Below, in pieces: positions 15,825 through 64,000 of a stretch of DNA of 64,000 bases. A program made the translations under genes and the position numbers. Source of the stretch: a virus (lineage: Duplodnaviria; Caudoviricetes); the IMG/VR virus record IMGVR_UViG_3300011113_000265, positions 1-64,000 of that record, one strand, 5' to 3'. Within the stretch, counting starts at the first letter, position 1, and every line of letters starts with the position of its first letter. The notes beneath the pieces were generated by a model. It saw nothing but the letters and a program-made list of their open reading frames with translations. It made no database searches and had not been told where the DNA came from.

Positions 15825-15825
15825 T

Positions 15826-22851: not shown

Positions 22852-22885
22852 TCAAATTATTTATAAACATTAAACAAATTAAACA

Positions 22886-24196: not shown

Positions 24197-24217
24197 TAAC
24201 AACTTTTAAACTTTAAT

Positions 24218-24254: not shown

Positions 24255-24268
24255 AATATAATCAATCC

Positions 24269-24838: not shown

Positions 24839-24839
24839 T

Positions 24840-25469
24840 ATGGAAAAAGAAAATAAATATTACTTATATAGACATATAAGATTAGATAAAAACGAGCCTT
24901 TTTATATAGGAATTGGTACTAAGGAATATAAAAATCCTAAAACACATGAACTTGAATATAGAAGAGCATTTAGAAAATATAATAGAAGTAAACATTGGAC
25001 TAACATTATAAAATTAACAGCTTATAAAGTAGAAATTTTATTTGAATCTAATGATTATAATATTATAAAAAATAAAGAAATAGAATTTATAAAACTTTAT
25101 GGTAGGAAGGATCTTGACTTAGGTACTTTAGTAAATTTTACAGATGGTGGAGATGGTTTTCATAAGATTATAACAGCGGAACAAAAAGTAAGAATATCTA
25201 AAAGTTTAAAAGAATACTATAGTAAAAATACAGTATCACAAGAAACTAGAAAAAAATTAAGTAACTTACATAAAAATAATGTAGGAAGTTCTAAAACAAG
25301 ATTTAAAAAAGGCGATAAACCTAAAAGCAGTAAAAAAATATTAGATTTAAATACAAATATAGAATATCAATCTATTTCTGAATATTGTAGAATTTTTAAT
25401 ATACCAATGACTAGTTTTTGCAGAAATATAAATAAATATAACATTTTAATATTAGAAAATAATGTGTAA
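24840..25469 (+). mobile_element. Free-standing GIY-YIG homing endonuclease with NUMOD-type repeats
   Basis: YYLYRH ... PFYIGIG, EIEFI, NFTDGGDG, SQETRKKLS, RFKKG. Likely ATG at 24840 (track ORF from 24819). Confidence 0.8.
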
Positions 25470-44099: not shown

Positions 44100-47000
44100 A
44101 TGCCATTAGATAATAATAATATAGGACATATTGATGATATAAGAGCAAGGTTAGCTGTTAAAGCTAAAGCTCCAAATTTTGCTACAGCGATAACATTAAA
44201 ACCTGATCAAATATCTCAATATGATACTCAATTTGAAATCCCTATAGGAGGAGATTGGGAAAGTGCATTAGGTGAATATAAAGCTCAACAACAACCTGGT
44301 ATAGATCAACTTGCTAATGGTCTTGTTAAAGGAGCTGTATTAGCAGGTACTACATTTGCAGATACTTTTGGAGGTACACTAAGCGGTGTACTTAACATGG
44401 CACTTAATGGTTCAGAACAAGGTTATTTAAATGCTTTTGTTAATAATCCATTTAGTAATGCTATGCAAGATATTAATGATGCATCAGAAAAAGCTTTTGC
44501 TAATTATAGAACTAGAGCTGAACAAGAAATGGGTGTATTTGAACAGATGGGTACAGCTAATTTCTGGGGTGATATGTTTATTAAAAACTTAGGATTTGCT
44601 GGTGGTGCAATGGCAGCTGGTTATGTAAGTGGTGCATTATTTTCAGGATTAACACAAGGAGTTAGAGCTAGACAAGAAGCAGAGTTATTTAAAAAAATGA
44701 CTAAAAATGTTATTACTAAAGATGCTAAAAGTGTTGAAGAAGGTATACAAATGCTTGCTAATGCTGAAAGAACAGGATTACTTAATGTTGAAGCAGCTGA
44801 ATTAAAACAATTATTAGAAGATAGTGGTAAAGCATATAGAAACTTAAACAGAGCTAATCAATTAACAAGTTCTGCTTTAGCTGCTACAGGTGAAGCTAGA
44901 ATTGAAGCTTTAGGTAATGGTAGACAATTTCAAAAAGCTAAACTACAAGAACTTAATGCAGAGTTTAAAAATTCTGATGGTACTTTTAAAGCAGGTAAAA
45001 CTCAAGAAGAATATAATAATAAATTAAATCAATTAGATGATTTAGTTAAAGGATTTCAAAATTCTGAGTTTTTAATAAATACTGCTTTATTAACTGCAAG
45101 TAACTTTATAGGTTATAGAAATTTCTTTGCTAAAGATTATGGTTTAAATGCTGGTAGATTTGATGATCTTATTAGTATTAATTCAATTAAAAATATAACT
45201 GCTGGTGAAGATATTGCTAAATTAATACAAACTAAATGGTATAGTACTTTAGGTAAATCTTTAATGGGTTCTGGTAGAGAAGGTCTTGAAGAATTTTTTC
45301 AAACTGTAACACAAAAATCTGCAGATAATTACTATAGTGCTAAATTTAATGGTGTAGATCCAGATGCTTTTACTAGTCTTGCTGCTGGTATGAATGAAGC
45401 TATGGGTAAAGAAGGTTTAGAAAGTTTTATACTTGGTGCTATGACAGGTTTAATTATGCCTGGAGGTGGTTTAATAAGTGAGTTTAAACAAGCTAAACAA
45501 CTTAATAAAGATGCTGCTGAAAGAGTAGCTGATTTAAATAACTCTGTAAAAGCATATGTAGAACAATACAAAACTAACCCTGAAAGTGTGTTTATGAATT
45601 TCTATGATATGATTAATAGAGATGTTAATCTTAATAAAGCTCAATTAAAAGCTTTACTAGATGATGATAAATATACTTATGAGAATTTAAAAAACGACAA
45701 GTTTTATAATATGGCTAGTGCATTTATTAATGCAGGTAAGTATAATGATCTTGTTGATATATTAGAAGAAGAAACTAAATTAAGTGCTGATGATTTAAGA
45801 GTAAAGTATTCCGTACCTACAGATCCTGCTGATCCTAATTCTCCTAAAAAAGAATTTTTTAAAAACTGGACAGATGATGAGATAAAAACTTATGTTGCTA
45901 ACCAATCTAGAAAAAATACAGATGCTGTTAAGAATATCAGAGATCTTATGAATAACATAGAATCTAGATATGGTAAACAACTTGCTTTAGTTAAAACTGA
46001 AGATGGTACTAAAAAGGTTGAAATTAAAAACATTTTAGCAAGACATTTATTTTTAGGTGAAACTTTAGATCGCAGACTTACTAGTGTTCATAATGAACTT
46101 CTTAAAATGTTTGCTGATGCTGAACCTGCTAATGTTTTAGATACAACAGATGGTTTTGCTATTACAGATTTTATTAATAATGCATCTCGTCAACTAGAAG
46201 AAGTTAATGATGAAAACTTTAAAAAAATATTAAAGAATTTTGAAAAAGTTGCAAAAAATAGTTCTGATCCTAAAAAGATGATAGAACTATTTACTGATTA
46301 TATACAATTAGCTGGAGATAGAAAAGCTCATAATGCTGCTTGGATTAGATTAACTGAAAATAGTTTTACTAATCTACTTAATAGATTACAAACAGAAGAT
46401 CAAAAACAAGCTGAAAAAAATATAGAGCAAACTAATAAAGAGTTAAATGATGAAGAAAAGATTAATATAGTTAGAGAAAAAGCTAAAGCTGCAGGTTACA
46501 GTAAAGTTGGTAATTATTTTACTATTACAGATAATAATGGTAATGTTAAAAAATATGAACTAGATCCTATTGATATATTTAATGAAAGAAAAAAATTACA
46601 AGAAGAATTTAATAATAATTTATCTCAATTAGATCCTAATGATACTGAAGCTATTAAAGCTTTAGAAGAAGATTATGCTTTTAAAAAAGATGATCTTGTT
46701 AATAAAGCTAATCAAGCTTTAATTAAAGATTTTGAAACTGGAGAATATTTAAAAGAAAATAATCAATATGTAAAATTTAATAAAGAGTTTGCTCTAAAAA
46801 ATTATAATAAAATACAATTTATACCTAGAGAACAAGCCGTATCTATTAAAAGATCTAAGGTAATACAAAATTCTAATAGAAGAAAAATAGAAGCTGTTAG
46901 ACAAGTATTACTTGAATTAAATAAAGATATTAATTCTAATATTGCTCAAATAGATGCTCTTAATAATGAAAAAAGTCAATTAGAAAATGATATAAAATTT

Positions 47001-49997
47001 TTTAATGAGTATTTATTAATATTAGATAATGATATTGATATTGATGAAACTAAAAAGCTTTTAAATAAAGCTAATGACAGATTAAACCAACTTAATACTG
47101 CAATAGAAAATATAAATAAAACTATATTTGAATTAAATAATCAAAAGAAAGATCTTATTACTTTAGGTTTAGAAATTAAAGAATCTTTTGAAAAATCTGA
47201 AGGATTTTCTATCGAAGAGTTTATTAGAAAAATGGATGATTTAAATATACCATCTATTGAAAGAATATGGGCTAAAAATTTAGTTAAAGATTTAGAAGAT
47301 TTGGCTAATACTAATGATATTGATAATGCATTATATAATTTAGATATTCTTAAAAGTAATTTAGAAGTTGAAGTAAATAGAGTTACTAATATTATTGATA
47401 TTTTAGAAAAAGCTTTAATTAAATCAGAAGCTTATAAAGAATGGGTATTAGCTTCTAAAATAGAAGGATTACCTGGATGGTTTAGTAGTAAATGGAATGT
47501 TAGTAAAACAACAGATCCATTTAAACTTAGTGCTAAATCTAATGATTTAAAAGATATAAAAAAATTATATCAGTTTCAAAAATTAATGACTAAATATGCT
47601 AATGCAAATGGTATTAGTCCTGAAGAAGCATATCAAGAATACTTAAATGATTTAAATCAATTAAAAGAAGAAACTAATAATTTTGATAATAATCTTAATA
47701 GAACTTATCAAGAAATAGAAAGTATTAGAGAACATTTATTAATTAATAAAGCTGATTTAGTTAATTTAAAAAATAGATTAGCTGATGTTATTGATGTAAT
47801 GGAATTTAATAAGAAAAGATCTCTTGTTAATACTATTCAAAAAAATCTTAATCAAATTAAAATTAAATATAGTAATATTGTTAATAAAGAAACTAAAAAT
47901 CTTCAATTAGTAGATAATCAAATAGGAAGTGATGCTCCTCCAATTGATGATGTTACTGAAGAAGATAATATTGAATTAGGTACTTCAAAAAGTGCTAAAT
48001 CTAATAATCTTTTTTATACTACTAATAAAACAATATTACAAAAATCTAATGGAAAAACAGATTATGATAGTGAAGGATATCCAAAAACTAATCCTAATAA
48101 TGATGCTGTTAGATGGAATACCTTTTTAGAAAGAAATCCTGATTTAAGTAAAAACTTTGCATTACAAGCATTTATTTTACAAGATTTACCTGATGACTCT
48201 CCACTTAAAATAGCTGCATTAGAACGCATAAAACAAGGTGGTGGTACACCTAGTAGTACAGATATTATTACAGCTTTAGTAGATACTAAAACTGACGAAC
48301 TAGTTAAAGCTAGTATTGATGGTATTCAAAATGGTGAAGTAGGTCAAGGGTTAGTTTATACATTTTTACCTCTTACAAGTAGTTTATTAGAAGGAGATTC
48401 TAAAGTAAATGGACCTGCATTATTTACATATTTTAATAATTTTGGTTTAAAAGATTTAGGATATAATTCAATTAATTTACAATCATCTATAATGAATTTA
48501 GATAAATCTCATGATGGTGATTTAATAGAACTTACTAAAAAAGATGGAACTAAACTTAAAATAACTTTAGCAGAGTTTAAAAATATGACTTTAGAATATG
48601 CTAAAAATAAGCATATTGAATTTATTAATATAATTATTACATCTAGTAGAAGTGGTAAAAAAGTATTTTTACCTATAAAAGGAGTAACTAATGGTATTTT
48701 ATTAAAGAAAGAATCTGTTGATGGTTCTAATGTAATGCAACCAGTTCGTAATATATTAGCAGATAGAAGAAATATTGATACTTCAACTGATACAGGTTTA
48801 GATAATGTTAAAATATTTGTAGTTGATAAAAAAGTTGATCAGTATAAAATACCTGGTACAAATATTATTATTGATAATCCTAAATTAGGAGCTACTATAA
48901 TTTATAATGCAAAAACAAAAGAATATTTTTATGCTAATCAAAGAAATATTAATGATGATGAAGTTGATTTAATATTTCATTTGTTAGAAATGATTGCTAA
49001 TAATCCTGAGAAAAATTTGAACATGCAAGTAAAAATTGGTGGTCAAGATAATAGATTTTATATTGGAGCTAATGGTGATAGAATATCTGAAATAGATATT
49101 TTTAGAAAACAAGGAACTATATCTCTAATGAATAATCTTATTTATTGGGGAGGTAAACCTAAAACAGAAGCTACTAAACATACTATTTATATTGATAAAG
49201 GTAGAATATTTTATCCTAATCCTAATAACAACTTTGCTTTAGAATTTATATCTTTATCAGATATAAGAAATATTGGTAAAAATAAAAATTTACAAGCTTA
49301 TTTAAAAACTAAAAGATTTAATGTTAATACTAATATGATGAAAAATACAGGATTATATTTTCATCCAGTATTAAAAAATGGTAAATTAGATTGGGTTGCT
49401 TTTAAAGGAGGTTATAAAGATATGTTGTTAAATGGTAATGCTAAAATGGATCCTGTATTAATAACAAGTGCTATTGATAGTAATAATAGTAATTATAAGG
49501 GAAATAAATTATTATTTGCTTCTAAAAATATTATATTAGATATTAATAATGACGGTATACCTTCTATAATGAATGATTATAAAAAACAACAACCTGCAAA
49601 AAGTCCAATAATACCTCCTATTGTAGCAGGTACATATACTACTACAACAACTAGTCAACCTATTGCTGAACCTGTATTTACTGATAAACAAGGTTTACCA
49701 CAAAATTTAGAAGATATAGAAGTTACAGATGAATTTTTAAATGAGAATGCTGTTATAATAGGAAAATCAAGCAAATCAACTTTTGTATCAGGTGTTACAA
49801 ATGAACTTATATTTTCTGAAACACCACTTATTACAAAAACAACGCCTCCACCATCAGATACTAATCAAGGTGCACAACCAGAAGTTGTAGAACAAAAAAC
49901 TGAAGAATTAAAAGATCAGTGTGAAGGTAATACTCCTAATACACCTACTAAAAAACCTAAAGGATTTGGTAAAAATAATAATCCATTAGGTATTTAA
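44100..49997 (+). CDS. Giant cargo protein with N-terminal membrane-like segments and coiled coils
   Basis: 1965 aa; Gly/Ala hydrophobic stretches in the first ~460 aa; the only Cys seen is near the C-terminus. Confidence 0.7.
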   Translation: MPLDNNNIGHIDDIRARLAVKAKAPNFATAITLKPDQISQYDTQFEIPIGGDWESALGEYKAQQQPGIDQLANGLVKGAVLAGTTFADTFGGTLSGVLNMALNGSEQGYLNAFVNNPFSNAMQDINDASEKAFANYRTRAEQEMGVFEQMGTANFWGDMFIKNLGFAGGAMAAGYVSGALFSGLTQGVRARQEAELFKKMTKNVITKDAKSVEEGIQMLANAERTGLLNVEAAELKQLLEDSGKAYRNLNRANQLTSSALAATGEARIEALGNGRQFQKAKLQELNAEFKNSDGTFKAGKTQEEYNNKLNQLDDLVKGFQNSEFLINTALLTASNFIGYRNFFAKDYGLNAGRFDDLISINSIKNITAGEDIAKLIQTKWYSTLGKSLMGSGREGLEEFFQTVTQKSADNYYSAKFNGVDPDAFTSLAAGMNEAMGKEGLESFILGAMTGLIMPGGGLISEFKQAKQLNKDAAERVADLNNSVKAYVEQYKTNPESVFMNFYDMINRDVNLNKAQLKALLDDDKYTYENLKNDKFYNMASAFINAGKYNDLVDILEEETKLSADDLRVKYSVPTDPADPNSPKKEFFKNWTDDEIKTYVANQSRKNTDAVKNIRDLMNNIESRYGKQLALVKTEDGTKKVEIKNILARHLFLGETLDRRLTSVHNELLKMFADAEPANVLDTTDGFAITDFINNASRQLEEVNDENFKKILKNFEKVAKNSSDPKKMIELFTDYIQLAGDRKAHNAAWIRLTENSFTNLLNRLQTEDQKQAEKNIEQTNKELNDEEKINIVREKAKAAGYSKVGNYFTITDNNGNVKKYELDPIDIFNERKKLQEEFNNNLSQLDPNDTEAIKALEEDYAFKKDDLVNKANQALIKDFETGEYLKENNQYVKFNKEFALKNYNKIQFIPREQAVSIKRSKVIQNSNRRKIEAVRQVLLELNKDINSNIAQIDALNNEKSQLENDIKFFNEYLLILDNDIDIDETKKLLNKANDRLNQLNTAIENINKTIFELNNQKKDLITLGLEIKESFEKSEGFSIEEFIRKMDDLNIPSIERIWAKNLVKDLEDLANTNDIDNALYNLDILKSNLEVEVNRVTNIIDILEKALIKSEAYKEWVLASKIEGLPGWFSSKWNVSKTTDPFKLSAKSNDLKDIKKLYQFQKLMTKYANANGISPEEAYQEYLNDLNQLKEETNNFDNNLNRTYQEIESIREHLLINKADLVNLKNRLADVIDVMEFNKKRSLVNTIQKNLNQIKIKYSNIVNKETKNLQLVDNQIGSDAPPIDDVTEEDNIELGTSKSAKSNNLFYTTNKTILQKSNGKTDYDSEGYPKTNPNNDAVRWNTFLERNPDLSKNFALQAFILQDLPDDSPLKIAALERIKQGGGTPSSTDIITALVDTKTDELVKASIDGIQNGEVGQGLVYTFLPLTSSLLEGDSKVNGPALFTYFNNFGLKDLGYNSINLQSSIMNLDKSHDGDLIELTKKDGTKLKITLAEFKNMTLEYAKNKHIEFINIIITSSRSGKKVFLPIKGVTNGILLKKESVDGSNVMQPVRNILADRRNIDTSTDTGLDNVKIFVVDKKVDQYKIPGTNIIIDNPKLGATIIYNAKTKEYFYANQRNINDDEVDLIFHLLEMIANNPEKNLNMQVKIGGQDNRFYIGANGDRISEIDIFRKQGTISLMNNLIYWGGKPKTEATKHTIYIDKGRIFYPNPNNNFALEFISLSDIRNIGKNKNLQAYLKTKRFNVNTNMMKNTGLYFHPVLKNGKLDWVAFKGGYKDMLLNGNAKMDPVLITSAIDSNNSNYKGNKLLFASKNIILDINNDGIPSIMNDYKKQQPAKSPIIPPIVAGTYTTTTTSQPIAEPVFTDKQGLPQNLEDIEVTDEFLNENAVIIGKSSKSTFVSGVTNELIFSETPLITKTTPPPSDTNQGAQPEVVEQKTEELKDQCEGNTPNTPTKKPKGFGKNNNPLGI

Positions 49998-50019
49998 TAA
50001 AATATAATATAAAATAAAT

Positions 50020-53000
50020 ATGATTTTTGCATGTCCTATTAAAAGTTCACAAGCTTGGAAAGATTTAGAAGCTACTTATGGTAAACAAATGGCTTGGAAT
50101 CTTTATTACATGAATGCTGGAACAATACCTTCATTAACTGAAGCTAAACTAATTCGTGTAAATCATGAATCACAATTAAATAGTTTTATGTTTGAAGATA
50201 TAAAACTATCTAGTACTGAAAAAGATGATTTATTTAAAACTTTAAAGTATTGGTTTATTAGAAATATGACAGGTAGTTTTGATACATTAGATAAATTAGA
50301 AAATTTATTAGAAGATGAAATAGATTCTAAAACATTAAGAACTATATATGAAAATACTTTAACAGACATATTTAATAATATTGGTCCTGAACCAGGCAGT
50401 AGATTAGAACAAATATTTATTGCAATAGTTAAAGATCATCCTTATGATGAAACTACTAAATCTAATATATTTTTAGAAGAGTTTGGTATTGATGCAGGTT
50501 ATGGTCAAGGATTAATATATAATCAATTTAAAAAACAATTAAATAATTTACTTAGTTTTGAAGTTGATGATGAATCTGAAAATGAAAAAACTAAAGGTAA
50601 TGAAGATGTTAAAGATTCTTATGGTAAAGAAGCATTAAAACAAAATAGAAAAGATAGTTTCTCTAGAGGTATTAAATTATTACTATCAGGTATTCCTAAA
50701 TTACAAGGTACAAATTTATCAGATATAAATAGTTATGTAACTACTCAAACATTTGGTAGTGCTCAACCTATGGATCAATCTACAGTAAATAATTTATTAT
50801 TAAATACATTTGCTAATACACCTGCTAACATAAATGATTTTTTTGAAAAGATATATAAAGAAAAAGATAATAATCCTACAATTAATTGGTTGTATGAAAA
50901 AATATTTCAACATGTTAAAGTAACAACTAATGAGCAAGGTATAATTGTTAATTCTGAAATTAAAGCTGATGAAACTAATTTAGCTAGATTAAATCTTATT
51001 AATAAGTTTATACAATCATTTGCTAATTATAAATATAAATTAAATTCTTTTGTTGTTAGTCCTTCTGATTCTTCTGCAGAAGGTTTTAATATTAAAAAAC
51101 AAGACGCTGATACTAACAATCTTAAAAATAGGATGTTAAAAGAATGGGATGCTAATTTAATTAAAAATTATTCTGAAGGTTTTGTAGATTCTAAAGGTTA
51201 TAAAATTAATTTTAATTCAAATCAAGGATTTTTAAATTATATCTTAAATGAAAAAACTCCTTTAATTGATAGATTAACAGCTTTAGGTATTCCTAATATT
51301 GAAAATAGAATGTTAGATTCTGAAGAACTATTACCAATTAGAAATACTAAAGCAACTCTTTTCGATGTATCTAGTCAATTATTAAATAGTATTAGAACTA
51401 ATCAAAATAAAATACTTAATTTAAGTAATATACAAGAAATATTTAATCCTAAAGCTAAAGATGAATTTCTTGATATGCATGTATCAGTTGTTGGTATATT
51501 AGAGCATTTAATACCTTATAGAAAAGATTATGATAATCAGCTTTATAATATAGATGGTAATTTAATTAGTAGTATTAATTTGAATAATTATCAAACTTTA
51601 ATGTTAACTAGATTACAATCAGCTGTTAGTAAAGCATTAAAAATATATCCTGATGATTGGGCTAAAAATAATGGTAAAAATGTTTTAGAATATTTAAATA
51701 ATGAAATTCCTGAAGCTTTAAATTTATGGTCTAGTGATAGTATATTTTTAGATAGAATTATTAGAGGTAATAACTTATCTATTGAATTATTAGATGGTAT
51801 GACTTCTGTTGGAGAATCAGGTGTACATACTTCAGTTTTATCTGAAACAGATCTTTGGAGTACATTTATTGATAGTAGTTTAGATAATTTATTTCCTGCA
51901 ATAAAACACGCAGATAGAAGTATGTTTTATGGATATAGTTTTGGTTATGGAGATACAGATATACTAAGTAATAGTGGTAAATATGTTCCTAATGTTGAAT
52001 GGAAAAATGTTTTTAAAAATTATTTATTTAAATATTTAGATACTGAAATTAGACGTATAAGAATTGCTCAAGATAAAAATAGTATAGGTAATCAAATTCA
52101 AAATTATAATAAACAAAGTAAAAAATTTATTTTATTTGAAGATATATTAGATGTTAATAATTCAGCTAATCAAAATAAAATAGATGATTTAATTAATAGT
52201 TATACAGGGTTTGATAATTTAGTAAATAATCCTTGGGTAGCTGATAGATTTGAAAATTGGAGTAATCAATATTTTACAAAAACTATTGCTGCAGCTAACT
52301 CTGTAGGTATAGGTGAAAATATAAAAAATTCTGGTATTGATGCAAAAATATTAAATAAACTATATGTAGCTTTAGATTATTCTGCTAGAAGTAAACCTAA
52401 AAATAAACAATTTTTAGATGAGGTTATTAGTATTGCAGCAGCTAAATATTTTATTGGTTCTATAGAACAATCTAAATTATTTTTTGGTGATCCTGCATTA
52501 TACAATATAAAAGAATCAGATGGTATTCTTATATATGATATGATTAAAAGGGTTAATATGCAATCATCTACTAAGATGGTTGGTATTGTTGATGATATTA
52601 ATAATAGTTTTTTAAATAATCTAGCATTAGATAAAAAATATCAAATATCTTTTGATGGGCAAAATTACTTTTCTTATAAAAAGAATTTTGATGGTACTAT
52701 TACAGAATTAGTTATTAATGATCCTAAAACAATAACTTCAATAGGTACTGAACTAGCAATGATTTTTGGTGAAGATTCACCTGAATATAAAGCTTATACT
52801 AAAGGATTTGAAGAACCAGATGGTTATAGTATAGGTAATATATTCTTTGCTCTTGAAGGTATAATTAGAACTGAAGGTATTGCTTCAGGTAGACTTAATG
52901 TATTAGAAAAAGAATTAAAAGCACTACATTCTTCTAAAGAGGAAATTAATAAGTTATATACAATACCTAAAGGTATGAGTGCTAAAGATTATATGACTAA

Positions 53001-56000: not shown

Positions 56001-56466
56001 TGAAAAATCAATGGATTATATTTCAAATCCTTTCTTATTATATACTAAACAATATACTAAAGAAAGTAAGATTGTTTTACAAGATGAATTTGGAAATACA
56101 ATTATACCTGAAGGTGGTGTTAATGGTATAGATTATACTATTAAACCTGGTGATAAAGCTAATGAAAAGATAGTAAACTTAATTAGTAATTATCAAATAT
56201 CTGAAATTGCTGAAGCTCCTAGTAGTGAAACTGTTGCTAAACAAGCTATTGTTGAACTTACTCAACCTACTACACCTACTCAACCACAAGCTGATACATT
56301 TTATAATCTTAAAGATTTTTCAGATGAACAGAAATTTAGTATATTAGATAATATGATATCTAAAGGTGATGCTACTACTGAAGAAGATGCTGTAGATCAA
56401 TTAAATCAAATGTTAGCAACTGATAAGCAGTTTGCTGTTGAATATATGAAATCTTGTTTAACTTAA
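50020..56466 (+). CDS. Virion-packaged DNA-dependent RNA polymerase (crAss-like, phi14:2 gp66 type)
   Basis: 2148 aa; GLRIPNQ and KTGSDYDIDK (DxDxD catalytic motif, about 54244-54273). Confidence 0.88.
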   Translation: MIFACPIKSSQAWKDLEATYGKQMAWNLYYMNAGTIPSLTEAKLIRVNHESQLNSFMFEDIKLSSTEKDDLFKTLKYWFIRNMTGSFDTLDKLENLLEDEIDSKTLRTIYENTLTDIFNNIGPEPGSRLEQIFIAIVKDHPYDETTKSNIFLEEFGIDAGYGQGLIYNQFKKQLNNLLSFEVDDESENEKTKGNEDVKDSYGKEALKQNRKDSFSRGIKLLLSGIPKLQGTNLSDINSYVTTQTFGSAQPMDQSTVNNLLLNTFANTPANINDFFEKIYKEKDNNPTINWLYEKIFQHVKVTTNEQGIIVNSEIKADETNLARLNLINKFIQSFANYKYKLNSFVVSPSDSSAEGFNIKKQDADTNNLKNRMLKEWDANLIKNYSEGFVDSKGYKINFNSNQGFLNYILNEKTPLIDRLTALGIPNIENRMLDSEELLPIRNTKATLFDVSSQLLNSIRTNQNKILNLSNIQEIFNPKAKDEFLDMHVSVVGILEHLIPYRKDYDNQLYNIDGNLISSINLNNYQTLMLTRLQSAVSKALKIYPDDWAKNNGKNVLEYLNNEIPEALNLWSSDSIFLDRIIRGNNLSIELLDGMTSVGESGVHTSVLSETDLWSTFIDSSLDNLFPAIKHADRSMFYGYSFGYGDTDILSNSGKYVPNVEWKNVFKNYLFKYLDTEIRRIRIAQDKNSIGNQIQNYNKQSKKFILFEDILDVNNSANQNKIDDLINSYTGFDNLVNNPWVADRFENWSNQYFTKTIAAANSVGIGENIKNSGIDAKILNKLYVALDYSARSKPKNKQFLDEVISIAAAKYFIGSIEQSKLFFGDPALYNIKESDGILIYDMIKRVNMQSSTKMVGIVDDINNSFLNNLALDKKYQISFDGQNYFSYKKNFDGTITELVINDPKTITSIGTELAMIFGEDSPEYKAYTKGFEEPDGYSIGNIFFALEGIIRTEGIASGRLNVLEKELKALHSSKEEINKLYTIPKGMSAKDYMTNELRPFTQQKFQYLGPNYMTDRDSYIKSGSEGEWKNRLGFVAGRKTSYGYLMPSMVKGTVLEQLNRFMLENGIDVIHFSSAAKFGAGKTRNFYSTTTTPEGITHTTRFNNAPIEYGEIGYLDFRYMGKQQEVSYESKNEASDSTQGRKTNLSGIIENGEAINEELEQYLEEYDNIYRDLISELIKELSNSYKLSPVTFNMMDTMKFVNLIRKQAEQRDSPNNIIDSIVDWANSDTTLKYIESLANYQKIQYVLTSIVTNKLLILKRPGTMLPQSPSTGWENKARQVIGDKLVASDEYKFYTFEYDTDGNIIKVNPCECAIPLPVKYIDGLLDYYDGSQVLVNNEIIRKPNAQRSISKLIDILNEEIESGNVQHQITIKGLRIPNQQMSSNDVFKVKKFLNPIYNQTIIVPNEIIVKTGSDYDIDKESLYFPILDDKMMIKGPDELNNIQKAQQDLLSLEIKMLLHPSRVKRLLTPVTEGSIKQIAKDKQKQIAQQEKNSPNKTVNKPATHLFEMSSLIDGTLEYVGGKKGVGIVATWITFHKLAERYKITLKPSYYDASKETYISTALNNQFLDGVDKYDTEGNIIFYNTYNEHNGVIEQIEDILSSLITSQVDIVKDSYSSVVNIKLNTLNLVCYLVMRGCSTQSIINFIDNPYVKQFNKIKDINKAQSINSDYARSNKDIVEFIANKNKNIEALLNEYIKLSEQSFKIKDVKDYLSADTKYLKSPEEVWEVDNTLYSKIISTEGLISENQINNLRDNSLLSGFITSRSLINTIFDRLYLTRNSSNKELVNKQSLLTRNGFSHIFNTEAKNKAVKRYNEHFVTFLIQNIIKHNYDNLKSGPNSLAKRILRAKDNPQFKNNTLIKQLVAIIDNKLGNNTNQQIDNIKLYFSKLTTAETNNLISNYEDIEKIDNDLYKDLVYFNLYQAGISNSPYQLNKILSYKGQKLVLNAINSPEIQKLLTDENLAIFYDKFFKNNPTLVKKNRKIKASDFVENNDFESFEKSMDYISNPFLLYTKQYTKESKIVLQDEFGNTIIPEGGVNGIDYTIKPGDKANEKIVNLISNYQISEIAEAPSSETVAKQAIVELTQPTTPTQPQADTFYNLKDFSDEQKFSILDNMISKGDATTEEDAVDQLNQMLATDKQFAVEYMKSCLT

Positions 56467-56480
56467 AAATATAAAATATA

Positions 56481-56891
56481 ATGTTACCTAAATTAAAAGG
56501 AAGTCAAATGGAACCTGCTGGTTCAACTAAAGCTGCTGTGCAAGCTATATCACAATGCTTATTTGAAGTTGAAATTCAAATGCATATAGTACATTTACAA
56601 GCAAGAGATAAATCATTTGCAATGCATGAAGCTCTTGGTGCATTCTACTCATCACTAGCTGATCTTAATGATGATTTAGTAGAAAAGAGTTTTGTTAAGA
56701 CTGGTCTTATGATGAATTACACTAGTATGAATATTACTAATAATGTAGAACCTATTTCTTATATTAAAAAAGAAATGGCTAAGATTGAGTCTATGAGAAC
56801 TAAAGTTACTGAAGGTTATATACAACAAATAGTTGATAATATACTTGAGCAATTTGCTCATGCAATTTACAAACTTGAAAATCTACACTAA
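56481..56891 (+). CDS. Ferritin/Dps-like four-helix protein
   Basis: HIVHLQ ... HEALGAFY ... DDLVE ... YKL pattern. Confidence 0.7.
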   Translation: MLPKLKGSQMEPAGSTKAAVQAISQCLFEVEIQMHIVHLQARDKSFAMHEALGAFYSSLADLNDDLVEKSFVKTGLMMNYTSMNITNNVEPISYIKKEMAKIESMRTKVTEGYIQQIVDNILEQFAHAIYKLENLH

Positions 56892-59800
56892 TGGCTGTAT
56901 TTTGTATAACAACTAGTAATCCTGAATTCCAAAAGCTACTAGCTGAAAGTGGAAAGAAACAAGGCGTGTTTGCTATGATGGTTTCTAAATGGATGACTGA
57001 AAATGAAGTATATGATAGGTACCCAACTTTACAAGAGTTGGGTATTTCTCCTATAACTAGTGTTAAACCAAATAAATTATTTGGATTATCTGAATCAGAA
57101 AATTTACAATTTAGTATAAATACACTAAATGCTATAAATGAATTTTTACAAGAAATTGGAGTAGAACAAAGATTTATTTCACAATTTATGAATGAGCAAG
57201 GTATTGCTCAAGATAATGTTCTTGCTGCTGCTAATTTTATTCAAGGTACTGTTGATATAATTGATGATGTAGAAAAAAGACCTTTAGCATGGGATAAACT
57301 TCCTGAAGAAGCTGCTCACTGGTGGTATAGATTATTAAAACATTCATCACCTTTAAAAAAATCATTATGGGAAGCTGCTAAAAATTCTGATAAATTAAAA
57401 GAACTAGCAGGTTCTAATTATGGTGATTATAATTCATTAGATGCTTTTACAGAAGAAGCTATTGGACAATTAATTGCTGAATCTATATATAGAATTCAAA
57501 ATAATAAAGCAACTGAAGCAGATAAAAATTTTTGGGATAAATTTATTGATTGGATTAAAAAATTACTTAATAAAGTAGAACAACATATAAATACTCCTTT
57601 TGATGAAGCTGCTGAAAAAATATTAAATAAAGATATAAAAGATTTATATGATTTAGAATATTATTCTAATATTGTTAATAGGTTAACTGATAATGAATTA
57701 GATAAAATTGTAAATGATATTCATAATAATGATATTATATATGATTCTAAAAATAAAAATATTATATATCAATATAATAATTTAGCGTATAATATTAATT
57801 TTTATCTTGATGAGTCAAATAAACAACTTAATTTAAATTTTAGTTCTCAATTTGATACTCAAAATCCTTATACAAATTTTATACAAACAATTATTCCTGA
57901 TATATGGCAATATCAAAGTTCAGGTTTTTCAAAAACAGATATTAATAGTATTTCTAGTGATGAAGAATTAACCGAATATTTAATGGATGCTCTTCAATAT
58001 TTCAATTTAAGTAAATATGAAGAAGTTAAACAAAATATTCAAAAGTCAATTTCTAAATCATATTCAGATATTACAGATATTAATATTTTAAAACAAATAT
58101 TTAATAGATTATTTAGTGATGGAGCTTTTGATGAATTATTTCAAGAATATAAAAATAAATCTATAAATAAAGGAAAGTTTATTGTTGAATTAAAAAAAAT
58201 AACTAATAACTATATTAATATAAATAATTCTCAAATAGATATTAATTTATTAGATAAAGAATTAAATTTAAAATCAACAAGAGTATTTAATAAAGGACAT
58301 TTTCAAAAAATAGAATTACCTAGAATTTTAAATGCTTTAGTTTATAATAAATTAAATGATATTAAAGCTAATAAATATTTACTAGTTAAAAATTTTAGAG
58401 AAAATTCTAAAGATTTATCTACAGATACAATTAAAACAATTTTTAAATTAAATGAATTAATAGATCGCAAACTTAAAAATAAACCTATAGATAGTAGTAA
58501 ATTTAAAGAAGAAGCTTTAAAAAAGATATATGATATTATAATTAATGATTTTAATGATTTAGGATATTCAGATTATATTATTAATTCTAATCAAAATAAT
58601 TCAGTTGGATTTAAAATAAATGATTTATTATTTGATGATTTTAAATTATTAGAAAATATAAAATATGATTCTAAAAATAAAGGTATAAGATTTTGGGCAG
58701 AAATACCTGAAACATTTTCTCAAGTTTATGGAAATAGTTTTTTTGTTAAATTATTAATAGATAATTTAAAGAAAGATAATATTTATAATGATATTATGAA
58801 TCCTATAAAAGGATATTATGATAAAATTAAATTTTCAAAATATTCTTTTAGTAATTTAAATATAAAAAATATTAATTCTGATGAATTTAAAGAAATTTTA
58901 TTTTTTGATAGTATATTATTATCATCTGATTTAAAACAAAATTTAAGTAATATTGTTAAAGAAAAAACTGGTAAATCTTTAAGTGTTTATTTTTCTAATA
59001 TATTAAATAATACATTAAATACTGAATATTTAAATAGTGAGAAAAAAATAATTAATAGAAAATTAGGAGTTAATAAATTATATTCTGAAGAATATTTTAA
59101 ATCTTTTGATAAAATAGATAGATTTTTTATTGCTGCTAAAATTTCTGAAATTTTAGAAACAAGTAATAAAAAAGTAATTACTGAACTTGCTGTTCTAAAT
59201 GTAATGAATCAAATTAATTATGATCCAAATGAAGCTTATGAAAGAGGTTTTGGATTTTATCATGGTTTTCCAGGATATTCAGATCAAACTGAAACAAATG
59301 AAATAACTTTTAGTGATGTTAAAAATTTTGTAGATGGTGTATTATGGAGTACTGATAGAGAATTACATTTTCCATTATCAACTTATACTGCTCAATCTAA
59401 ATTTAAAAATGAAAAATGGAATCATAAATTAGGATCACGTAGACAACAAGTTAGAATTGTTTTATTTCCTGAATCTTCTGATATTAAATTAGCAGGTAAA
59501 GATGATATTTATTCAGGTCAAAGAGATAGTGTAAGATTAGAAGAATTAAATTTAAAGTTACCTGTTACTAAATATTATTTTAGAGATGTTGATAGTATTA
59601 CATCAACTATTGCAGATTCAATAGAACTTAGAGATCATAATCATAATGAACAAGTTATTGATTTAAAAAAAGGTAGATTTTATTTTGAATATGATGATGA
59701 TATTTCAGATGAAATTAAAAATTATTTAAATACAGTAAATCAAAAATTATTAAATAATTTAAAAGTAAATCCAAATATTATTAATGAAAACTCTGATTAT

Positions 59801-60325
59801 ATTGATAATTCACCTTATGTTGTTAAAAGAACTAATAAATCTTTAATTGATATTAAAAAATCTAATGAAGTAAATAAAAAATTTACTAAAGGTCCTTTAA
59901 TTAATATATCTAAATTATATAAAGATATTAAAAAAGAATTAACAGAAGATAAAATTATAAAATATAAATTAGAAAAAAGAGAAAATTTAACTAATTATTT
60001 AGAAGCTTATATAAAAGATTTTAAAGAATTTAATCAAGTATTAAATCAATATACTGATTATCGACAAGATAAAGAAAATCTTTTATATAATAATGATATA
60101 ATTGAAGTAATTGATTTTTATTTAAATAGTGGTGAAGCTCCAACTTTTACTAATTTTCAATCTCATGTTAATACTAATAGAATAAATTATTTATTTGCTA
60201 TAGATCAAGCTAATAAACAAACTTATTCTTATAGTAGTCAAACTGGATTAGCTATGTCTAATGCTGAAGCTAAAGCTTTTAATAGTTTAGTAAATGATGG
60301 TACAATATCAATTAAATGTGAATAA
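56891..60325 (+). CDS. Large polyvalent cargo protein (degenerate zincin-like domain, possible ADP-ribosyltransferase domain)
   Basis: 1144 aa; PEEAAHW ... EEAIG ... FWDKFIDWIK; FYHG ... LSTYT ... NEQVI; Cys only at residue 5 and the penultimate residue. Confidence 0.6.
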   Translation: MAVFCITTSNPEFQKLLAESGKKQGVFAMMVSKWMTENEVYDRYPTLQELGISPITSVKPNKLFGLSESENLQFSINTLNAINEFLQEIGVEQRFISQFMNEQGIAQDNVLAAANFIQGTVDIIDDVEKRPLAWDKLPEEAAHWWYRLLKHSSPLKKSLWEAAKNSDKLKELAGSNYGDYNSLDAFTEEAIGQLIAESIYRIQNNKATEADKNFWDKFIDWIKKLLNKVEQHINTPFDEAAEKILNKDIKDLYDLEYYSNIVNRLTDNELDKIVNDIHNNDIIYDSKNKNIIYQYNNLAYNINFYLDESNKQLNLNFSSQFDTQNPYTNFIQTIIPDIWQYQSSGFSKTDINSISSDEELTEYLMDALQYFNLSKYEEVKQNIQKSISKSYSDITDINILKQIFNRLFSDGAFDELFQEYKNKSINKGKFIVELKKITNNYININNSQIDINLLDKELNLKSTRVFNKGHFQKIELPRILNALVYNKLNDIKANKYLLVKNFRENSKDLSTDTIKTIFKLNELIDRKLKNKPIDSSKFKEEALKKIYDIIINDFNDLGYSDYIINSNQNNSVGFKINDLLFDDFKLLENIKYDSKNKGIRFWAEIPETFSQVYGNSFFVKLLIDNLKKDNIYNDIMNPIKGYYDKIKFSKYSFSNLNIKNINSDEFKEILFFDSILLSSDLKQNLSNIVKEKTGKSLSVYFSNILNNTLNTEYLNSEKKIINRKLGVNKLYSEEYFKSFDKIDRFFIAAKISEILETSNKKVITELAVLNVMNQINYDPNEAYERGFGFYHGFPGYSDQTETNEITFSDVKNFVDGVLWSTDRELHFPLSTYTAQSKFKNEKWNHKLGSRRQQVRIVLFPESSDIKLAGKDDIYSGQRDSVRLEELNLKLPVTKYYFRDVDSITSTIADSIELRDHNHNEQVIDLKKGRFYFEYDDDISDEIKNYLNTVNQKLLNNLKVNPNIINENSDYIDNSPYVVKRTNKSLIDIKKSNEVNKKFTKGPLINISKLYKDIKKELTEDKIIKYKLEKRENLTNYLEAYIKDFKEFNQVLNQYTDYRQDKENLLYNNDIIEVIDFYLNSGEAPTFTNFQSHVNTNRINYLFAIDQANKQTYSYSSQTGLAMSNAEAKAFNSLVNDGTISIKCE

Positions 60326-60555
60326 TGTTATTACAATTAAACCCAACAATACCTGTGTATATCCCTGAGTTTGATGCTGAAGGATATGCATTTTTAGTTA
60401 ATGAAACACATGAAGAAGATTATCTTTATTTTACTGTTGCTTTAGATAATGGTGAGATATGGATACTTGATAATAGAAGAGTTAGATTTTGTGTTAATAG
60501 AACTAAATCTAGAAATAAAATAAATAAATTAAATAAATCAGAATACATAAAATGA
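60325..60555 (+). CDS. Hypothetical protein
   Basis: 76 aa, QLNPTIPV ... GEIW; overlaps both neighbours. Confidence 0.7.
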   Translation: MLLQLNPTIPVYIPEFDAEGYAFLVNETHEEDYLYFTVALDNGEIWILDNRRVRFCVNRTKSRNKINKLNKSEYIK

Positions 60556-63500
60556 GTTGTTCAATAGATCCAGATAAAATAACAGTTGGTGAAGTTAGAG
60601 ATCTTGTTAGGCGTAAAGAATTTAGTGAATTTAAACCTAATAAAGATGATGCTGCTTCTGATGTTATTAAAAAAATACAAGCTTTACAAAATAAAGTAAC
60701 TACTGAATTAGTAGATAATACACAGCTAGTTAAAGGATATCATTTAGATCCTAGTGGTAAGACTATGCGTTATGTATGGTTAGATACTAAAGAACTAGCT
60801 TTTAGTGGTAGGGTAACTGATATTAATAAAGCTAAATTTGTTAAAAGAAAAGGTGTTAAAGCTGCTGAAGAATTATCTAGTTTACCTGATAATATTATAA
60901 AACGTGATGCTGGTACTAAAGTACATAAAGCATTAGAAAAACTTGCTTTTTGGTTTATTAAAAATGATAAGTCTGGTTTAGTTGCTAATGATTTATCTAA
61001 AATACCTGATGTTGATGAAGATCAAATAAAAAATGAATTAGGTGTTTCAGATGGAGTTTTTTTAAATTTAAAAGAAGCATTTTCTGAAATATGGAGTACT
61101 GTTAAAAGTACACAAAAACAAATTGACCCTAATGGAAAGTTTTGGATAAATCCTGAAACTTTTATGTTAGATTTTACAACATTTGATAAAGGTGGTACTG
61201 CAGATTTACTTATAGTTTACTCAGATAAAAGTGGTGGTTTATTTGATTATAAAACCATGAGTCCTTTAACAGATGAGAATTATAAAATTAAAGATCCTAA
61301 TTGGATTGCTGATTATAAAATAGATGAGTTTAATACTCAAATATCTACTTTAATAGATATGTATAAAAAAATAGGTATTACTAAATTTAGACATGCTAGA
61401 ATTGTACCTATTCAAATTAGTTTAGCTCCTAAAGCTAAAACTGATACTACTAAAGCAGAAGGTGCTAAATTAACTGATAAATTTGTTACTGTTAAAATGG
61501 GTGAAAAGTTTGATGAATATCTAACTCAAATACCTATTATAGTAGAAGAAACTGGTAATGAATCTTTAGATAGAGCTATTAAAGAAGCAATTACTCTTAA
61601 AAATAATCTTAATAAAAGATTAAAAAAATATAAAGAGGATAGTGCTGAGTATAATAAATTAGTATTTAGAATTAAAAAACTAAATAAAAGTATTAATGAA
61701 ATTATGCTTAATAAAGATATTAACTTTATGTTTAAACAATATAGAGAACTTGTTAATAGATATATGAAGGGTAATTCTTTAATGGTAGAAACAAGAGATC
61801 CTAATAATTCTTTATTTTTAAATAATCAAAAGATTAAAGATTTACTTGATGATTTAAGTATATTTGAAGCTATTGCTAGTTCTACTCCTGACTTTATTGA
61901 TTCACTTGAATTAGGTGATTTTACTCCTGAATCATATTTAAATGCTTTAAATGAAATACTAGGTAAAACAACTTTTTTAAAAAATAGTTTAGAGCAAAGA
62001 CTTATTGATTTAAACTTAACTACTGATGAATATCAAGCTGCTAAGAATGATAAAAGCTTAAGTTGGTTTGATAAGTTATTTAGAAGATTTAGTAATATTA
62101 ATAATACTATTTTTCAAAAAGTTAAACAACTATTAGACTTAGCTAATACAAGAACTAGATTAGATATTAGAAACTTTGAGAGCCAGCTAAAAAAAATAGA
62201 TCAGGCCGTACAAGCTTACGGTAACTCTGTAGGACTTTCAGGTATGAAAGTGTATGAACTATTTGTAAATAAAAAAACAGGTAATTTACATACTAAATAC
62301 CTTAGTAAATTTTATGATGAGTTATCTGAAGCTAGAAAAGATAAAGATGATGCTTTTTTAAATAAATATCTTAAACTTCGTGAAGATGCTCAAGAAATAT
62401 TTGAAAAACGCAAACTTGATTATATGTTTAAAAACTCTTTAGTAGAAAGTGATTTAGAAAAAAATGATGCTTATATTAAATGGGAATCTGAAAATAATCC
62501 ATCTAAACCTAGTTCTAACACTAAATATTCTAACTATTGGTTTACTTATTATGAAATAAATGAAGATGCTATTCCTAATGAATATTTTAATCCTGATTTC
62601 ATAAAGATTAAAAGCAATCAAGCTTTATTAGATTATTATAATTTTTGGACAGATAGTATGGAAACCTTTAGAGAGTATCTTGATCTTAGTGGTGATAAAA
62701 TACCTAGAAATTTTATACCTTGGATTAAAGCTAATACTGTAGAACAGTTTATGAATAATGGGATTAATATATCTTTAGATAGTTTTAAAAACATTATGAG
62801 TATTCAAGAAAATAATGAACTTGTGTTTAGAGAAGGTTATATTGAATTAAAAAGTGAAATAGATCCTGACACTGGTTTACCTAAAAGAGAAATACCTAGA
62901 TACTTTATTAATCCTTTAATTAATCAACAAGGAGAAATAGATAGTAGTTTAAAATCTTTTGATTTATCTTCAAGTTTAATGATATTTGCTGGTATGGCTT
63001 ATAATTATAACAATCTTAAAGAACATGAAAATACTATTGAAGCTCTTAAAGAAGTTCTTGCTAAATTAGGTGTAGTACAAACTACTGCTGAAGGTAAAAC
63101 ATTACCTAATTCTGAAATTGGTAAAAGATCTGCTGAATTTAAATTATTAGAAGATCTTATTAATTCTCAATTATATGGAGCTTATTATAAAGAAAAACCT
63201 AGTAAAGCAACACAAGGTCTTCAAAAATTAAGATCTTATCAACAACTTACTACATTAGCTTTAGATCCTATATCATCAACAGTTAACTTAATGGGTGCTA
63301 GAACTAATGCTTTGTTTCAAGGTGTTAAAGGTTATTTTTATACTAGAGCAATGTATAATAAAGCATTAGATAATAGATTTAGAGATACTGAAAGATATAA
63401 AGCTTTAGCACATTTTTTTCAACCATATGCTAATAAACGTGTAGATGAAATAGCAAAAGAATTTAAAGGTAATAAGATTGCTAAAAAATTTAGTTATGAT

Positions 63501-64000
63501 AACTTATTTGTTGGTTTTAGATTAGGTGATGAGCATATTGATGAACAAGTACTTAATAGTATGTTACAAAACTATACTATTGTTGATGGTAAATTAAAAA
63601 GACTTACTGAAAAAGATAGAAATGCTGGTACTTATAAAAGCTTGTTAGATAGTAGTTCTGTTGATTCTGAAGGTAATCTTATTATTGAAGGATTACTTGA
63701 TGCTAATGGTAAAGTTGATGAACAAGTATATACTCAATTTAGAAATACTGTATTAAATACAATTGCTACTATTAAAGGAGGTCTTAATAGTGAAGATATG
63801 AATGCTATTAATCTTAGTATGAGTGGTAAAATGTTAATGACTTTTAGAAACTGGTTACCTGATCTTGCTGATGAAAGATTTAGAGGTATTACTGATGTAT
63901 GGAGTAGTAGTAGATCATCTTTAAGAATAAATCCTGTTACTAATACAGTTATTGAAGGTAGATATACTGCTTTTTTTAGTGATATGAATACTGAAGATAA
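60552..64000 (+). CDS. Giant cargo protein with N-terminal PD-(D/E)xK nuclease domain, truncated by the window end
   Basis: Not in the track (no stop inside the window). The first ~240 aa translated by hand give MSCSIDPDK ... AGTKVHKALE ... PETFM ... GGTADLLIV ... LFDYKT. Confidence 0.75.
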   Translation, partial: MSCSIDPDKITVGEVRDLVRRKEFSEFKPNKDDAASDVIKKIQALQNKVTTELVDNTQLVKGYHLDPSGKTMRYVWLDTKELAFSGRVTDINKAKFVKRKGVKAAEELSSLPDNIIKRDAGTKVHKALEKLAFWFIKNDKSGLVANDLSKIPDVDEDQIKNELGVSDGVFLNLKEAFSEIWSTVKSTQKQIDPNGKFWINPETFMLDFTTFDKGGTADLLIVYSDKSGGLFDYKTMSPLTDENYKIKDPNWIADYKIDEFNTQISTLIDMYKKIGITKFRHARIVPIQISLAPKAKTDTTKAEGAKLTDKFVTVKMGEKFDEYLTQIPIIVEETGNESLDRAIKEAITLKNNLNKRLKKYKEDSAEYNKLVFRIKKLNKSINEIMLNKDINFMFKQYRELVNRYMKGNSLMVETRDPNNSLFLNNQKIKDLLDDLSIFEAIASSTPDFIDSLELGDFTPESYLNALNEILGKTTFLKNSLEQRLIDLNLTTDEYQAAKNDKSLSWFDKLFRRFSNINNTIFQKVKQLLDLANTRTRLDIRNFESQLKKIDQAVQAYGNSVGLSGMKVYELFVNKKTGNLHTKYLSKFYDELSEARKDKDDAFLNKYLKLREDAQEIFEKRKLDYMFKNSLVESDLEKNDAYIKWESENNPSKPSSNTKYSNYWFTYYEINEDAIPNEYFNPDFIKIKSNQALLDYYNFWTDSMETFREYLDLSGDKIPRNFIPWIKANTVEQFMNNGINISLDSFKNIMSIQENNELVFREGYIELKSEIDPDTGLPKREIPRYFINPLINQQGEIDSSLKSFDLSSSLMIFAGMAYNYNNLKEHENTIEALKEVLAKLGVVQTTAEGKTLPNSEIGKRSAEFKLLEDLINSQLYGAYYKEKPSKATQGLQKLRSYQQLTTLALDPISSTVNLMGARTNALFQGVKGYFYTRAMYNKALDNRFRDTERYKALAHFFQPYANKRVDEIAKEFKGNKIAKKFSYDNLFVGFRLGDEHIDEQVLNSMLQNYTIVDGKLKRLTEKDRNAGTYKSLLDSSSVDSEGNLIIEGLLDANGKVDEQVYTQFRNTVLNTIATIKGGLNSEDMNAINLSMSGKMLMTFRNWLPDLADERFRGITDVWSSSRSSLRINPVTNTVIEGRYTAFFSDMNTED

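Follow-up and report, generated by a model that had tools for sequence, protein, structure and literature searches.

Paired terminal cysteines mark the joints between giant cargo proteins of crAss-like phages and may link them head to tail

No phages are more abundant in the human gut than crassviruses. In crAss001, the cargo proteins gp47 (262.5 kDa), gp49 (154.5 kDa) and gp50 (276.9 kDa) were found in virions by mass spectrometry (PMC10172136), and virions of phi14:2 contain gp66 and its two neighbours (phi14:2 preprint). According to the crAss001 atlas, the tail has constrictions of less than 50 Å through which the cargo can pass only if it unfolds in part, and packing and mutual interactions probably determine the cargo order (PMC10172136). 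Fusions of these proteins into crAss-like polyproteins were noted in the phi14:2 preprint, and a 2026 paper on N4 states that the crassvirus ejection proteins remain unresolved (PMC13434306). Herein, we describe the cysteines of such a cargo module in the viral record IMGVR_UViG_3300011113_000265. The window analysed comprises the first 64,000 bases of this 97,017-bp record; the complete last protein of the module was taken from the whole record. Cysteines in these giant proteins sit at the ends that face each other in gene order, a rule that holds in most related loci and that may reflect disulfides joining one protein to the next.

A run of large plus-strand open reading frames (ORFs) starts at position 39487 of the window and encodes proteins of 862, 638, 1965, 2148, 136, 1144 and 1372 amino acids (aa; Table 1). 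Four of them are giant: a first protein (1965 aa), a putative virion RNA polymerase (RNAP, 2148 aa), a middle protein (1144 aa) and a last protein (1372 aa). The rule they illustrate is that a cysteine is found at both ends of every middle protein, but solely at or close to the C-end in the first giant protein and solely at the N-end in the last. With no C-terminal cysteine in the 1372-aa protein, the series closes as the end-to-end idea requires. The four proteins (6629 aa) contain 10 cysteines; if these were placed at random, the probability of finding at least five of them within five residues of any of the eight ends would be 2e-9. The cargo block as a whole has 11 cysteines in 8265 residues (0.133%), compared with 1.29% in the 74 other ORFs of at least 100 aa in the genome. 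Among those 74 ORFs, a cysteine occurs in the first 10 residues of seven and in the last 10 residues of six. The first-pass annotation of the window had proposed, from the cysteine positions, a disulfide-linked ejection chain. All positions it gave were correct, including the lack of cysteine in the 862-aa and 638-aa proteins, as was its statement that each C-terminal cysteine is followed in gene order by an N-terminal one; the 1372-aa protein, with C3 only, supports the end of the series. The 136-aa ORF between the RNAP and middle genes had been missed.

Homologs as distant as 25% identity conserve the terminal cysteines of the RNAP. With the whole RNAP as query, 21 proteins were recovered, and all 20 full-length ones (25–98% identity) have a cysteine at position 3–5 and another 0–5 residues from the C-end; the 21st, a 1484-aa match that is probably cut, has the N-terminal cysteine only. 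Viral contigs scanned with the RNAP alignment yielded 80 further loci, each taken with 10 kb on either side. In a census of ORFs of at least 250 aa, the C-end of each upstream protein was compared with the N-end of the next, over 182 adjacent plus-strand pairs in 81 loci. A cysteine was present on both sides of the junction in 105 pairs and on neither side in 61. It was present on the downstream N-end alone in 13 pairs, and on the upstream C-end alone in only three. The linking cysteines lay 0–7 residues from the C-end (mode 1) and at positions 2–7 from the N-end (mode 3). The full pattern consists of any number of cysteine-free proteins, one protein with a C-terminal cysteine only, any number with both and one with an N-terminal cysteine only. 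It was followed by 64 of the 81 loci; six had no terminal cysteine at all and 11 deviated. Once loci were clustered at 70% RNAP-core identity or more, 50 of 61 clusters contained a fitting locus.

The same arrangement was found in five named phages. In phi14:2, the sole cysteine of g067 (1797 aa) is its last residue, the RNAP g066 (2180 aa) has only C3 and C2179, and g065 (1421 aa) has only C3. CrAssphage LMMB has a 1957-aa protein with a cysteine one residue from the C-end, followed by a 4070-aa protein with C3. FpV4 has a 4287-aa protein, whose only cysteine is one residue from the C-end, followed by a 1596-aa protein with C3. In crAss002, the single cysteine of gp32 is one residue from the C-end, and the first cysteine of gp33 (13088-25825 in locus L087) is annotated at position 35. 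An in-frame ATG at codon 33 of gp33 would give the usual Met-Ser-Cys start, and the true start probably lies 32 codons downstream of the annotated one. In crAss001, the only cysteine of gp47 (2341 aa), C2339, is two residues from the C-end; gp50 carries C5, C2404 (eight residues from the C-end) and an internal cysteine; and gp49 carries C5 only. Since crAss001 gp47 is encoded on the strand opposite to gp50 and gp49, the pattern is not a by-product of a signal at DNA junctions, and an artefact of this kind was rejected. An origin of the rule in chance, composition or annotation in general is hardly conceivable. ORF starts were called as the longest ATG/GTG/TTG frame, which allows N-ends to be misplaced, but the probability calculated for the window, the spread of the rule over clusters, the opposite strands in crAss001 and the cysteine content of the rest of the genome all speak against it.

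Comparison of split and fused genes suggests that cysteine pairs come with gene breaks and are lost on gene fusion. ORFs complete at their 5' end were graded by the distance of the RNAP core from the start. All 33 ORFs with the core 963–2107 residues from the start, in which the RNAP is its own gene, had an N-terminal cysteine. It was absent from all 30 ORFs with the core 2219–3244 residues in, in which the RNAP is fused to the first protein. Such fusion proteins, 3700–5100 aa long, had one to three cysteines in total. Heads of the split RNAPs aligned at internal positions 1250–2200 of the fused proteins, where the projected junction is a charged low-complexity linker with no cysteine and no head or tail motifs. 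One locus (L009) encodes an all-in-one protein of 5002 aa with no terminal cysteine. The fused gene of L078 is 99.6% identical to that of L076 apart from a break, at which there is no cysteine. A quickly built maximum-likelihood tree of the RNAP core (80 rows) requires at least four changes between the split and the fused state, three of them forced by well-supported branches. Thus, the association with cysteine is not a single inherited event.

A second class of split was found at the other end of the module. Seventeen single 'last' proteins of other lineages cover the 1144-aa domain together with almost the entire 1372-aa protein; each has one N-terminal cysteine, and two of the 17 also have one internal cysteine. 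Since these proteins span both parts, the C1143/C3 pair of the window lies at a new break in an ancestral last protein. Whether terminal cysteines stay paired through splits, fusions and insertions was a check that the first-pass annotation had proposed; they did so across the 80 further loci and the five named phages.

The number of C-terminal linking cysteines equals the number of N-terminal ones, each being the number of proteins minus one, and the pairs follow the breaks and joins. The simplest reading is thus a disulfide in place of the linker. We put the probability that head-to-tail disulfides join the cargo proteins, replacing the peptide linker of the polyprotein, at roughly 0.6. The C-terminal cysteine of each protein would bond with the N-terminal cysteine (position 2–7) of the next, and the outcome would be a linear hetero-chain of approximately 6,600 residues, functionally matching a single polyprotein with a charged linker. 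Such a bond cannot form in the reducing cytoplasm of the host; its formation would have to await the finished particle or, possibly, the passage through the periplasm. The tail and portal vertex of the crAss001 particle do contain disulfides (PMC10172136). In the cytoplasm of the next host the bond would be cut, and this reductive release would free the polymerase and the effectors. With cysteines this close to the ends, only a few residues would protrude at each joint, which hints at passage through a narrow channel, and the proteins may thread through the tail in order. The full picture is that of a 'post-translational polyprotein' in Crassvirales and their relatives: a disulfide-joined thread of several thousand residues that is packed, ejected through the tail, cut in the cytoplasm and open to plug-in payloads. 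It is more tentative than the disulfide itself, and we consider its chances to be slightly short of even.

The placement of the cysteines bears on two other roles that they could have. Elsewhere, lipoproteins and inteins make use of N-terminal cysteines, and the cysteines of the cargo could likewise serve a non-redox purpose, such as acylation, processing, protein splicing or protection of the ends. This is very unlikely. A generic end signal would also mark the N-end of the first protein and the C-end of the last, and neither is marked. A bacterial lipoprotein was rejected because the cysteine stands at position 2–7, right after Met and a few small residues, with no signal peptide or lipobox before it. 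A split intein or trans-splicing was rejected because Pfam found no intein or Hint blocks at E≤0.1 in the six window proteins searched, and only 0–7 residues follow the C-terminal cysteine. Alternatively, the terminal cysteines may anchor the cargo elsewhere rather than to each other, either to structural proteins at the portal or on the inside of the capsid, or through a bridging metal ion. Many disulfides connect structural proteins in the crAss001 particle, and the cargo is unresolved in its maps (PMC10172136). Anchoring is nevertheless an unlikely explanation, since it does not account for a first protein without an N-terminal cysteine, for a last protein without a C-terminal one, or for the gain of exactly one pair per split and its loss per fusion. 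In the metal version, one cysteine per end is too few for a normal site and no conserved His stands beside it; a metal site was rejected on these grounds.

If disulfides join the cargo proteins, their heads and tails would act as a plug-in system: whatever payload lies between them would be injected with the string, and members would range from an 89-aa adaptor with no payload to ADP-ribosyltransferase carriers exceeding 1000 aa. Searching exhaustively and without a profile, we obtained 98 matches to the 1144-aa protein, of which 18 have its head (approximately 52 residues, with a cysteine at position 5). In 16 of these 18, which are 89–1028 aa long, the head is accompanied by a conserved tail of approximately 25 residues with a cysteine one residue from the end; the two without a tail look truncated. 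The 89-aa and 94-aa members consist of head and tail with nothing between them. Including the window member, the family thus spans 89–1144 aa, with a constant cysteine head and tail and a variable payload. This supports the earlier suggestion that effectors could join the chain by acquiring both tags. Pfam identified ART-PolyVal in two relatives (P0074 and P0081) and found no domain match in the 1144-aa protein of the window; for the payload of the latter, the Atlas scores for LPD23 (0.96) and ADP-ribosyltransferase (0.92) are leads only. Relatives of the RNAP carry differing domains (DUF7831, NADAR and cpYpsA) inserted just before the cysteine tail, with insert spans of 2104-2233 in P0002, 2107-2245 in P0004 and 2045-2112 in P0016. 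On this comparison, the C-terminal part of the RNAP is a hot spot for accessory domains.

The first-pass annotation had also taken the N-termini of the RNAP and the middle protein for one module, and for this we found modest support. A relaxed motif, C-x3-S-x3-[WF]-x2-L, occurs on 28 N-termini, belonging to nine RNAPs, three middle proteins and 16 last proteins. Profiles of the two heads aligned with E=5.6e-4 and a probability of 30% in hhalign, which lends modest support to a common origin. Other head types likewise occur at different positions of the chain, as regular-expression classes. Heads and tails were typed by regular expressions; single-linkage clustering by local alignment merged everything into one cluster. 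A complex prediction for the RNAP tail (residues 2085-2148) with the middle head (residues 1-60), run without controls, gave scores of 0.29, 0.32 and 0.28, with the mark at 0.32, and thus speaks neither for binding nor against it.

Away from the ends, cysteine is almost absent from these proteins. The 185 plus-strand ORFs of at least 1000 aa in the loci total 446,160 aa and 275 cysteines, of which 65 (0.015%) are internal, that is, more than 10 residues from an end; 148 of the 185 ORFs have no internal cysteine. The 30 minus-strand ORFs of the same loci contain 1.72% cysteine, so the internal depletion is approximately 100-fold. Suppression of cysteine has been described in ejected proteins of N4-like phages, with 0.00075% in homologs of the virion RNAP compared with 0.865% in proteomes, and was ascribed to passage through the periplasm (PMC11445570). 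Internal purging is therefore a feature of an already known kind, and the new part is the paired terminal cysteines that are retained. In full-text searches of the literature, with subscription journals outside their scope, no report of terminal cysteines in the cargo proteins of crassviruses was found. In the available text of the crAss001 atlas (PMC10172136) and of the phi14:2 preprint, the word 'cysteine' occurs zero times.

Several points weigh against a disulfide-joined chain. The phi14:2 preprint takes the fused polyproteins to be 'likely cleaved'; if they are, the mature particle may do without a continuous covalent chain. The loci are related, so their counts exceed the number of independent events. 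Eleven of the 81 loci depart from the strict pattern, and although most can be explained, the explanations are post hoc: in L015 the start codon was probably called too far upstream and an internal Met gives the usual start of Met, a few residues and Cys; L031 is similar; and in L034 and L050 the first gene lies outside the locus. Also among the explained loci are those whose linking cysteine lies farther from the end. In the lineage of the window, the cysteine of the first protein lies 17–76 residues from the C-end in 11 of 11 homologs, so there it is not strictly terminal. In the RNAPs of L013 and L063, the linking cysteine is approximately 370 residues from the end, with an appended domain after it. 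The RNAP of the window keeps four internal cysteines, which are potential competitors for pairing. Covariation of tails with heads gave few informative pairs, eight for the next head and three for the protein's own head, with mean tail similarities of 0.29 and 0.26, respectively. An AlphaFold2 model of the 94-aa head-and-tail protein P0076 was of low confidence, with a mean predicted local distance difference test score (pLDDT) of 59 and a predicted template modelling score of 0.45; pLDDT was approximately 75 in the two head helices, below 50 in the tail and low at the cysteine tips.

The last two results bear on a different wiring of the same cysteines, in which each middle protein closes on itself from N- to C-end and the first protein is linked directly to the last. 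Here too the numbers of N- and C-terminal cysteines would be equal, and the covariation test did not separate pairing with the next head from pairing with the own head. We regard rings as improbable. Every new split would need a swap of partners, which is less parsimonious: with the older pair already bonded, the two cysteines gained when a gene splits anew must pair with each other, and parsimony then favours a chain. A closed ring would be unable to thread a narrow tail. The P0076 model shows no confident packing of the tail on the head, which is a weak point given its low confidence.

The place and time of oxidation are a further difficulty for a chain joined by disulfides, as the reducing cytoplasm of the host and the anaerobic gut leave both unclear. 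The text of the crAss001 atlas reports disulfides for the tail and portal vertex only and none in the cargo, with virions analysed by mass spectrometry both reduced and unreduced; that text does not state that cross-links in the cargo were sought (PMC10172136). The same pairs may have another timing and purpose. They could remain reduced in the particle and become oxidised by the periplasmic machinery of the host during ejection, where they would lock the conduit of an ejectosome. The periplasm has been invoked for the suppression of cysteine in ejected proteins (PMC11445570), and gut phages live anaerobically. Against this stand the position of the cysteines extremely near the ends and the equivalence of the pair to a peptide linker, both of which fit a link made before threading. 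We see an outside chance for the ejectosome lock, and disulfides that tie the cargo proteins together remain the reading we favour.

Table 1. Features of the cargo region, with cysteine positions and codons. Coordinates are positions in the record; the window ends at 64000. Cys, cysteine.
Feature	Coordinates	Strand	Remarks
862-aa protein with glycine-zipper segment	39487..42075	+	0 Cys; Pfam Gly-zipper_Omp, E=1e-5, residues 283-322; outside the Cys-linked series
638-aa protein	42165..44081	+	0 Cys; position of crAss001 gp46; outside the Cys-linked series
First protein of the series, 1965 aa	44100..49997	+	Sole Cys C1941 (KDQCEG); no N-terminal Cys
C1941 codon of first protein	49920-49922	+	Followed by a 24-residue low-complexity tail
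Putative gp66-type virion RNAP, 2148 aa	50020..56466	+	C5 (MIFACP), C2146 (KSCLT); internal C1309, C1311, C1628, C1635
C5 codon of RNAP	50032-50034	+	
CxC of RNAP (C1309, C1311)	53944-53952		
Cx6C of RNAP (C1628, C1635)	54901-54924		
C2146 codon of RNAP	56455-56457	+	
136-aa ORF between RNAP and middle protein	56481..56891	+	Only Cys C26, none terminal; PHROG 858, E=2.5e-16; Pfam DUF5856, E=7.7e-12
Middle protein, 1144 aa	56891..60325	+	Cys C5 and C1143 (IKCE) only; head module of ~52 aa with C5, variable payload, tail module of ~25 aa with C1143
C5 codon of middle protein	56903-56905	+	
C1143 codon of middle protein	60317-60319	+	
Last protein of the series, 1372 aa	60552..64670 (60552..64000 inside the window)	+	Starts MSCS; only Cys C3; no C-terminal Cys
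C3 codon of last protein	60558-60560	+	
HNH endonuclease, 162 aa	64636-65124	+	Beyond the window; NUMOD4 and HNH_3; PHROG 59, E=1.8e-34; 35-base overlap with the end of the last cargo gene

The best explanation of the four giant genes is that they encode the virion-packaged cargo module of a crAss-like phage, consisting of a gp47-type protein, a gp66-type RNAP, a polyvalent 'middle' effector carrier and a gp49/gp65-type protein. The 1965-aa protein is, by its BLASTP matches, the ortholog of crAss001 gp47 (E=2e-50) and of phi14:2 g067 (E=3.5e-7). The RNAP matches phi14:2 g066 and crAss001 gp50 by BLASTP. Its D1413, D1415 and D1417, which form the metal-binding DxDxD motif, are invariant in an alignment of 14 homologs, and C5 and C2146 are invariant in both RNAP alignments that were made. 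A profile of the 14-sequence alignment matched PDB entry 6VR4_A (E=5.7e-27); 6VR4 was reached by the profile only, as phmmer searches of PDB with the RNAP and with the last protein gave no match. Searches with tblastn of a phage collection with the window RNAP gave four distant matches only, and a search for related loci with the 1144-aa protein alone found a single relative. PHROGs and Pfam gave almost no matches on the giant proteins.

Taken together, the 1144-aa and 1372-aa proteins are the counterpart of one gp49/gp65-type protein in other lineages. By BLASTP, the 1144-aa protein aligns over its residues 52-296 with residues 149-410 of gp49 (E=7e-6). Of 109 'last'-type targets, 45 are matched by the 1372-aa protein, which corresponds to the later part of single 'last' proteins, for example residues 374-1658 of that in L065; 17 targets match the 1144-aa and then the 1372-aa protein, in this order. 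According to the phi14:2 preprint, gp65-type proteins have a zincin-like HExxH motif. A regular-expression search found this motif at position 245 of phi14:2 g065 and not in the 1144-aa and 1372-aa proteins of the window, so the zincin-type protease of gp65 orthologs may have been lost or altered in the window lineage. For the proteins upstream of the series, BLASTP found no match of the 862-aa protein to crAss001 gp45 (cargo protein 1) at E≤1e-3, and the equivalence of the two is by position only; the 638-aa protein had no family match in PHROGs or Pfam.

Further features were observed in the window and the related loci. The 136-aa ORF is probably not a member of the chain. PHROG 858, which it matches, is named 'starvation-inducible transcriptional regulator'; the ORF is also present in L002 (9591-10001), its presence in L004 is suggested by the size of the gap, and crAss001 has a small gene at a comparable place (gp48, annotated 'shock protein C'). 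The CxC and Cx6C pairs inside the RNAP are kept in its nearest relatives (P0002-P0004), partially present farther out and absent from phi14:2 g066; in this sub-lineage they may serve as a metal site or as a disulfide within the protein. The domain of approximately 370 aa after the linking cysteine of the RNAP in L013 (7973-15574) and L063 (84-5606) contains a His-x-x-Gly-Gly-x-Asp stretch that may resemble M23-type peptidases. Six of the 13 junctions with a cysteine on the N-end only involve a cysteine-rich protein of a different family, located downstream of the last cargo gene and with cysteines at positions 5, 10 and 18 (L029 18313, L041 18041, L046 19595, L047 18237, L067 21080 and L076 19923). 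End-placed cysteines also occur on smaller proteins upstream of the giant ones in three named phages. LMMB (L086) has a 264-aa protein (662-1456) with a cysteine five residues from the C-end and an 861-aa protein (1576-4161) whose single cysteine is one residue from the C-end; crAss002 (L087 2393-4066) has a 557-aa protein with a cysteine seven residues from the C-end; and FpV4 (L088 4054-5850) has a 598-aa protein with a cysteine at position 5.

In conclusion, the observation that started this analysis was confirmed and is wider than the window, and its interpretation was supported in part: the pairing logic and the idea of tags around a payload both passed comparative tests. The rule names the exact residues that would join successive cargo proteins, so that the question of how the cargo is packed, ordered and delivered becomes testable in cultured phages. 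If true, disulfide joining would explain how the same module can exist as one, two, three or four genes, and would be a natural redox-cleavable way to string proteins together. For annotation, the rule flags wrong start codons, as in crAss002 gp33.

The closest known system is the Crassvirales cargo module itself (gp67, gp66 and gp65 in phi14:2; gp47, gp50 and gp49 in crAss001), which has the same genes and the same cysteine rule as the window. Its presence in the virion is known for crAss001 and, from the preprint and the annotation of its record, for phi14:2, whereas the window belongs to a metagenomic record and is known from its genes alone. Compared with these two phages, the window lineage adds a fourth, inserted middle protein, and the cysteine of its first protein is followed by a 24-residue tail. 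Fused crAss-like polyproteins have the same domains in the same order, but with a cysteine-free charged linker where the window has separate genes and cysteines flanking each break. The N4-like Schitoviridae likewise eject giant virion RNAPs with companions (gp50/gp71, gp72 and gp73), whose cysteine content is far below that of the proteome. These are described as having no cysteine altogether (PMC11445570), whereas the crassvirus cargo keeps one per joining end, and the polymerases of the two groups belong to different families (PMC13434306). The disulfides of the tail and portal vertex of crAss001 are also formed between proteins, but their partners are structural proteins of rings, hub and vertex that sit in a fixed lattice, and not the ends of ejected proteins. 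Outside phages, a single interchain disulfide ties the halves of two-chain translocated toxins together until the target cytosol reduces it, both chains being derived from one cleaved precursor. The cargo would resemble these toxins in having a reducible covalent tie that survives translocation; there is no relation in sequence, and in the window up to four separately encoded proteins would be tied. Finally, the classical polyvalent proteins of phages and conjugative elements string their domains in one polypeptide, whereas here a payload lying between a cysteine head and a cysteine tail would join the string post-translationally.

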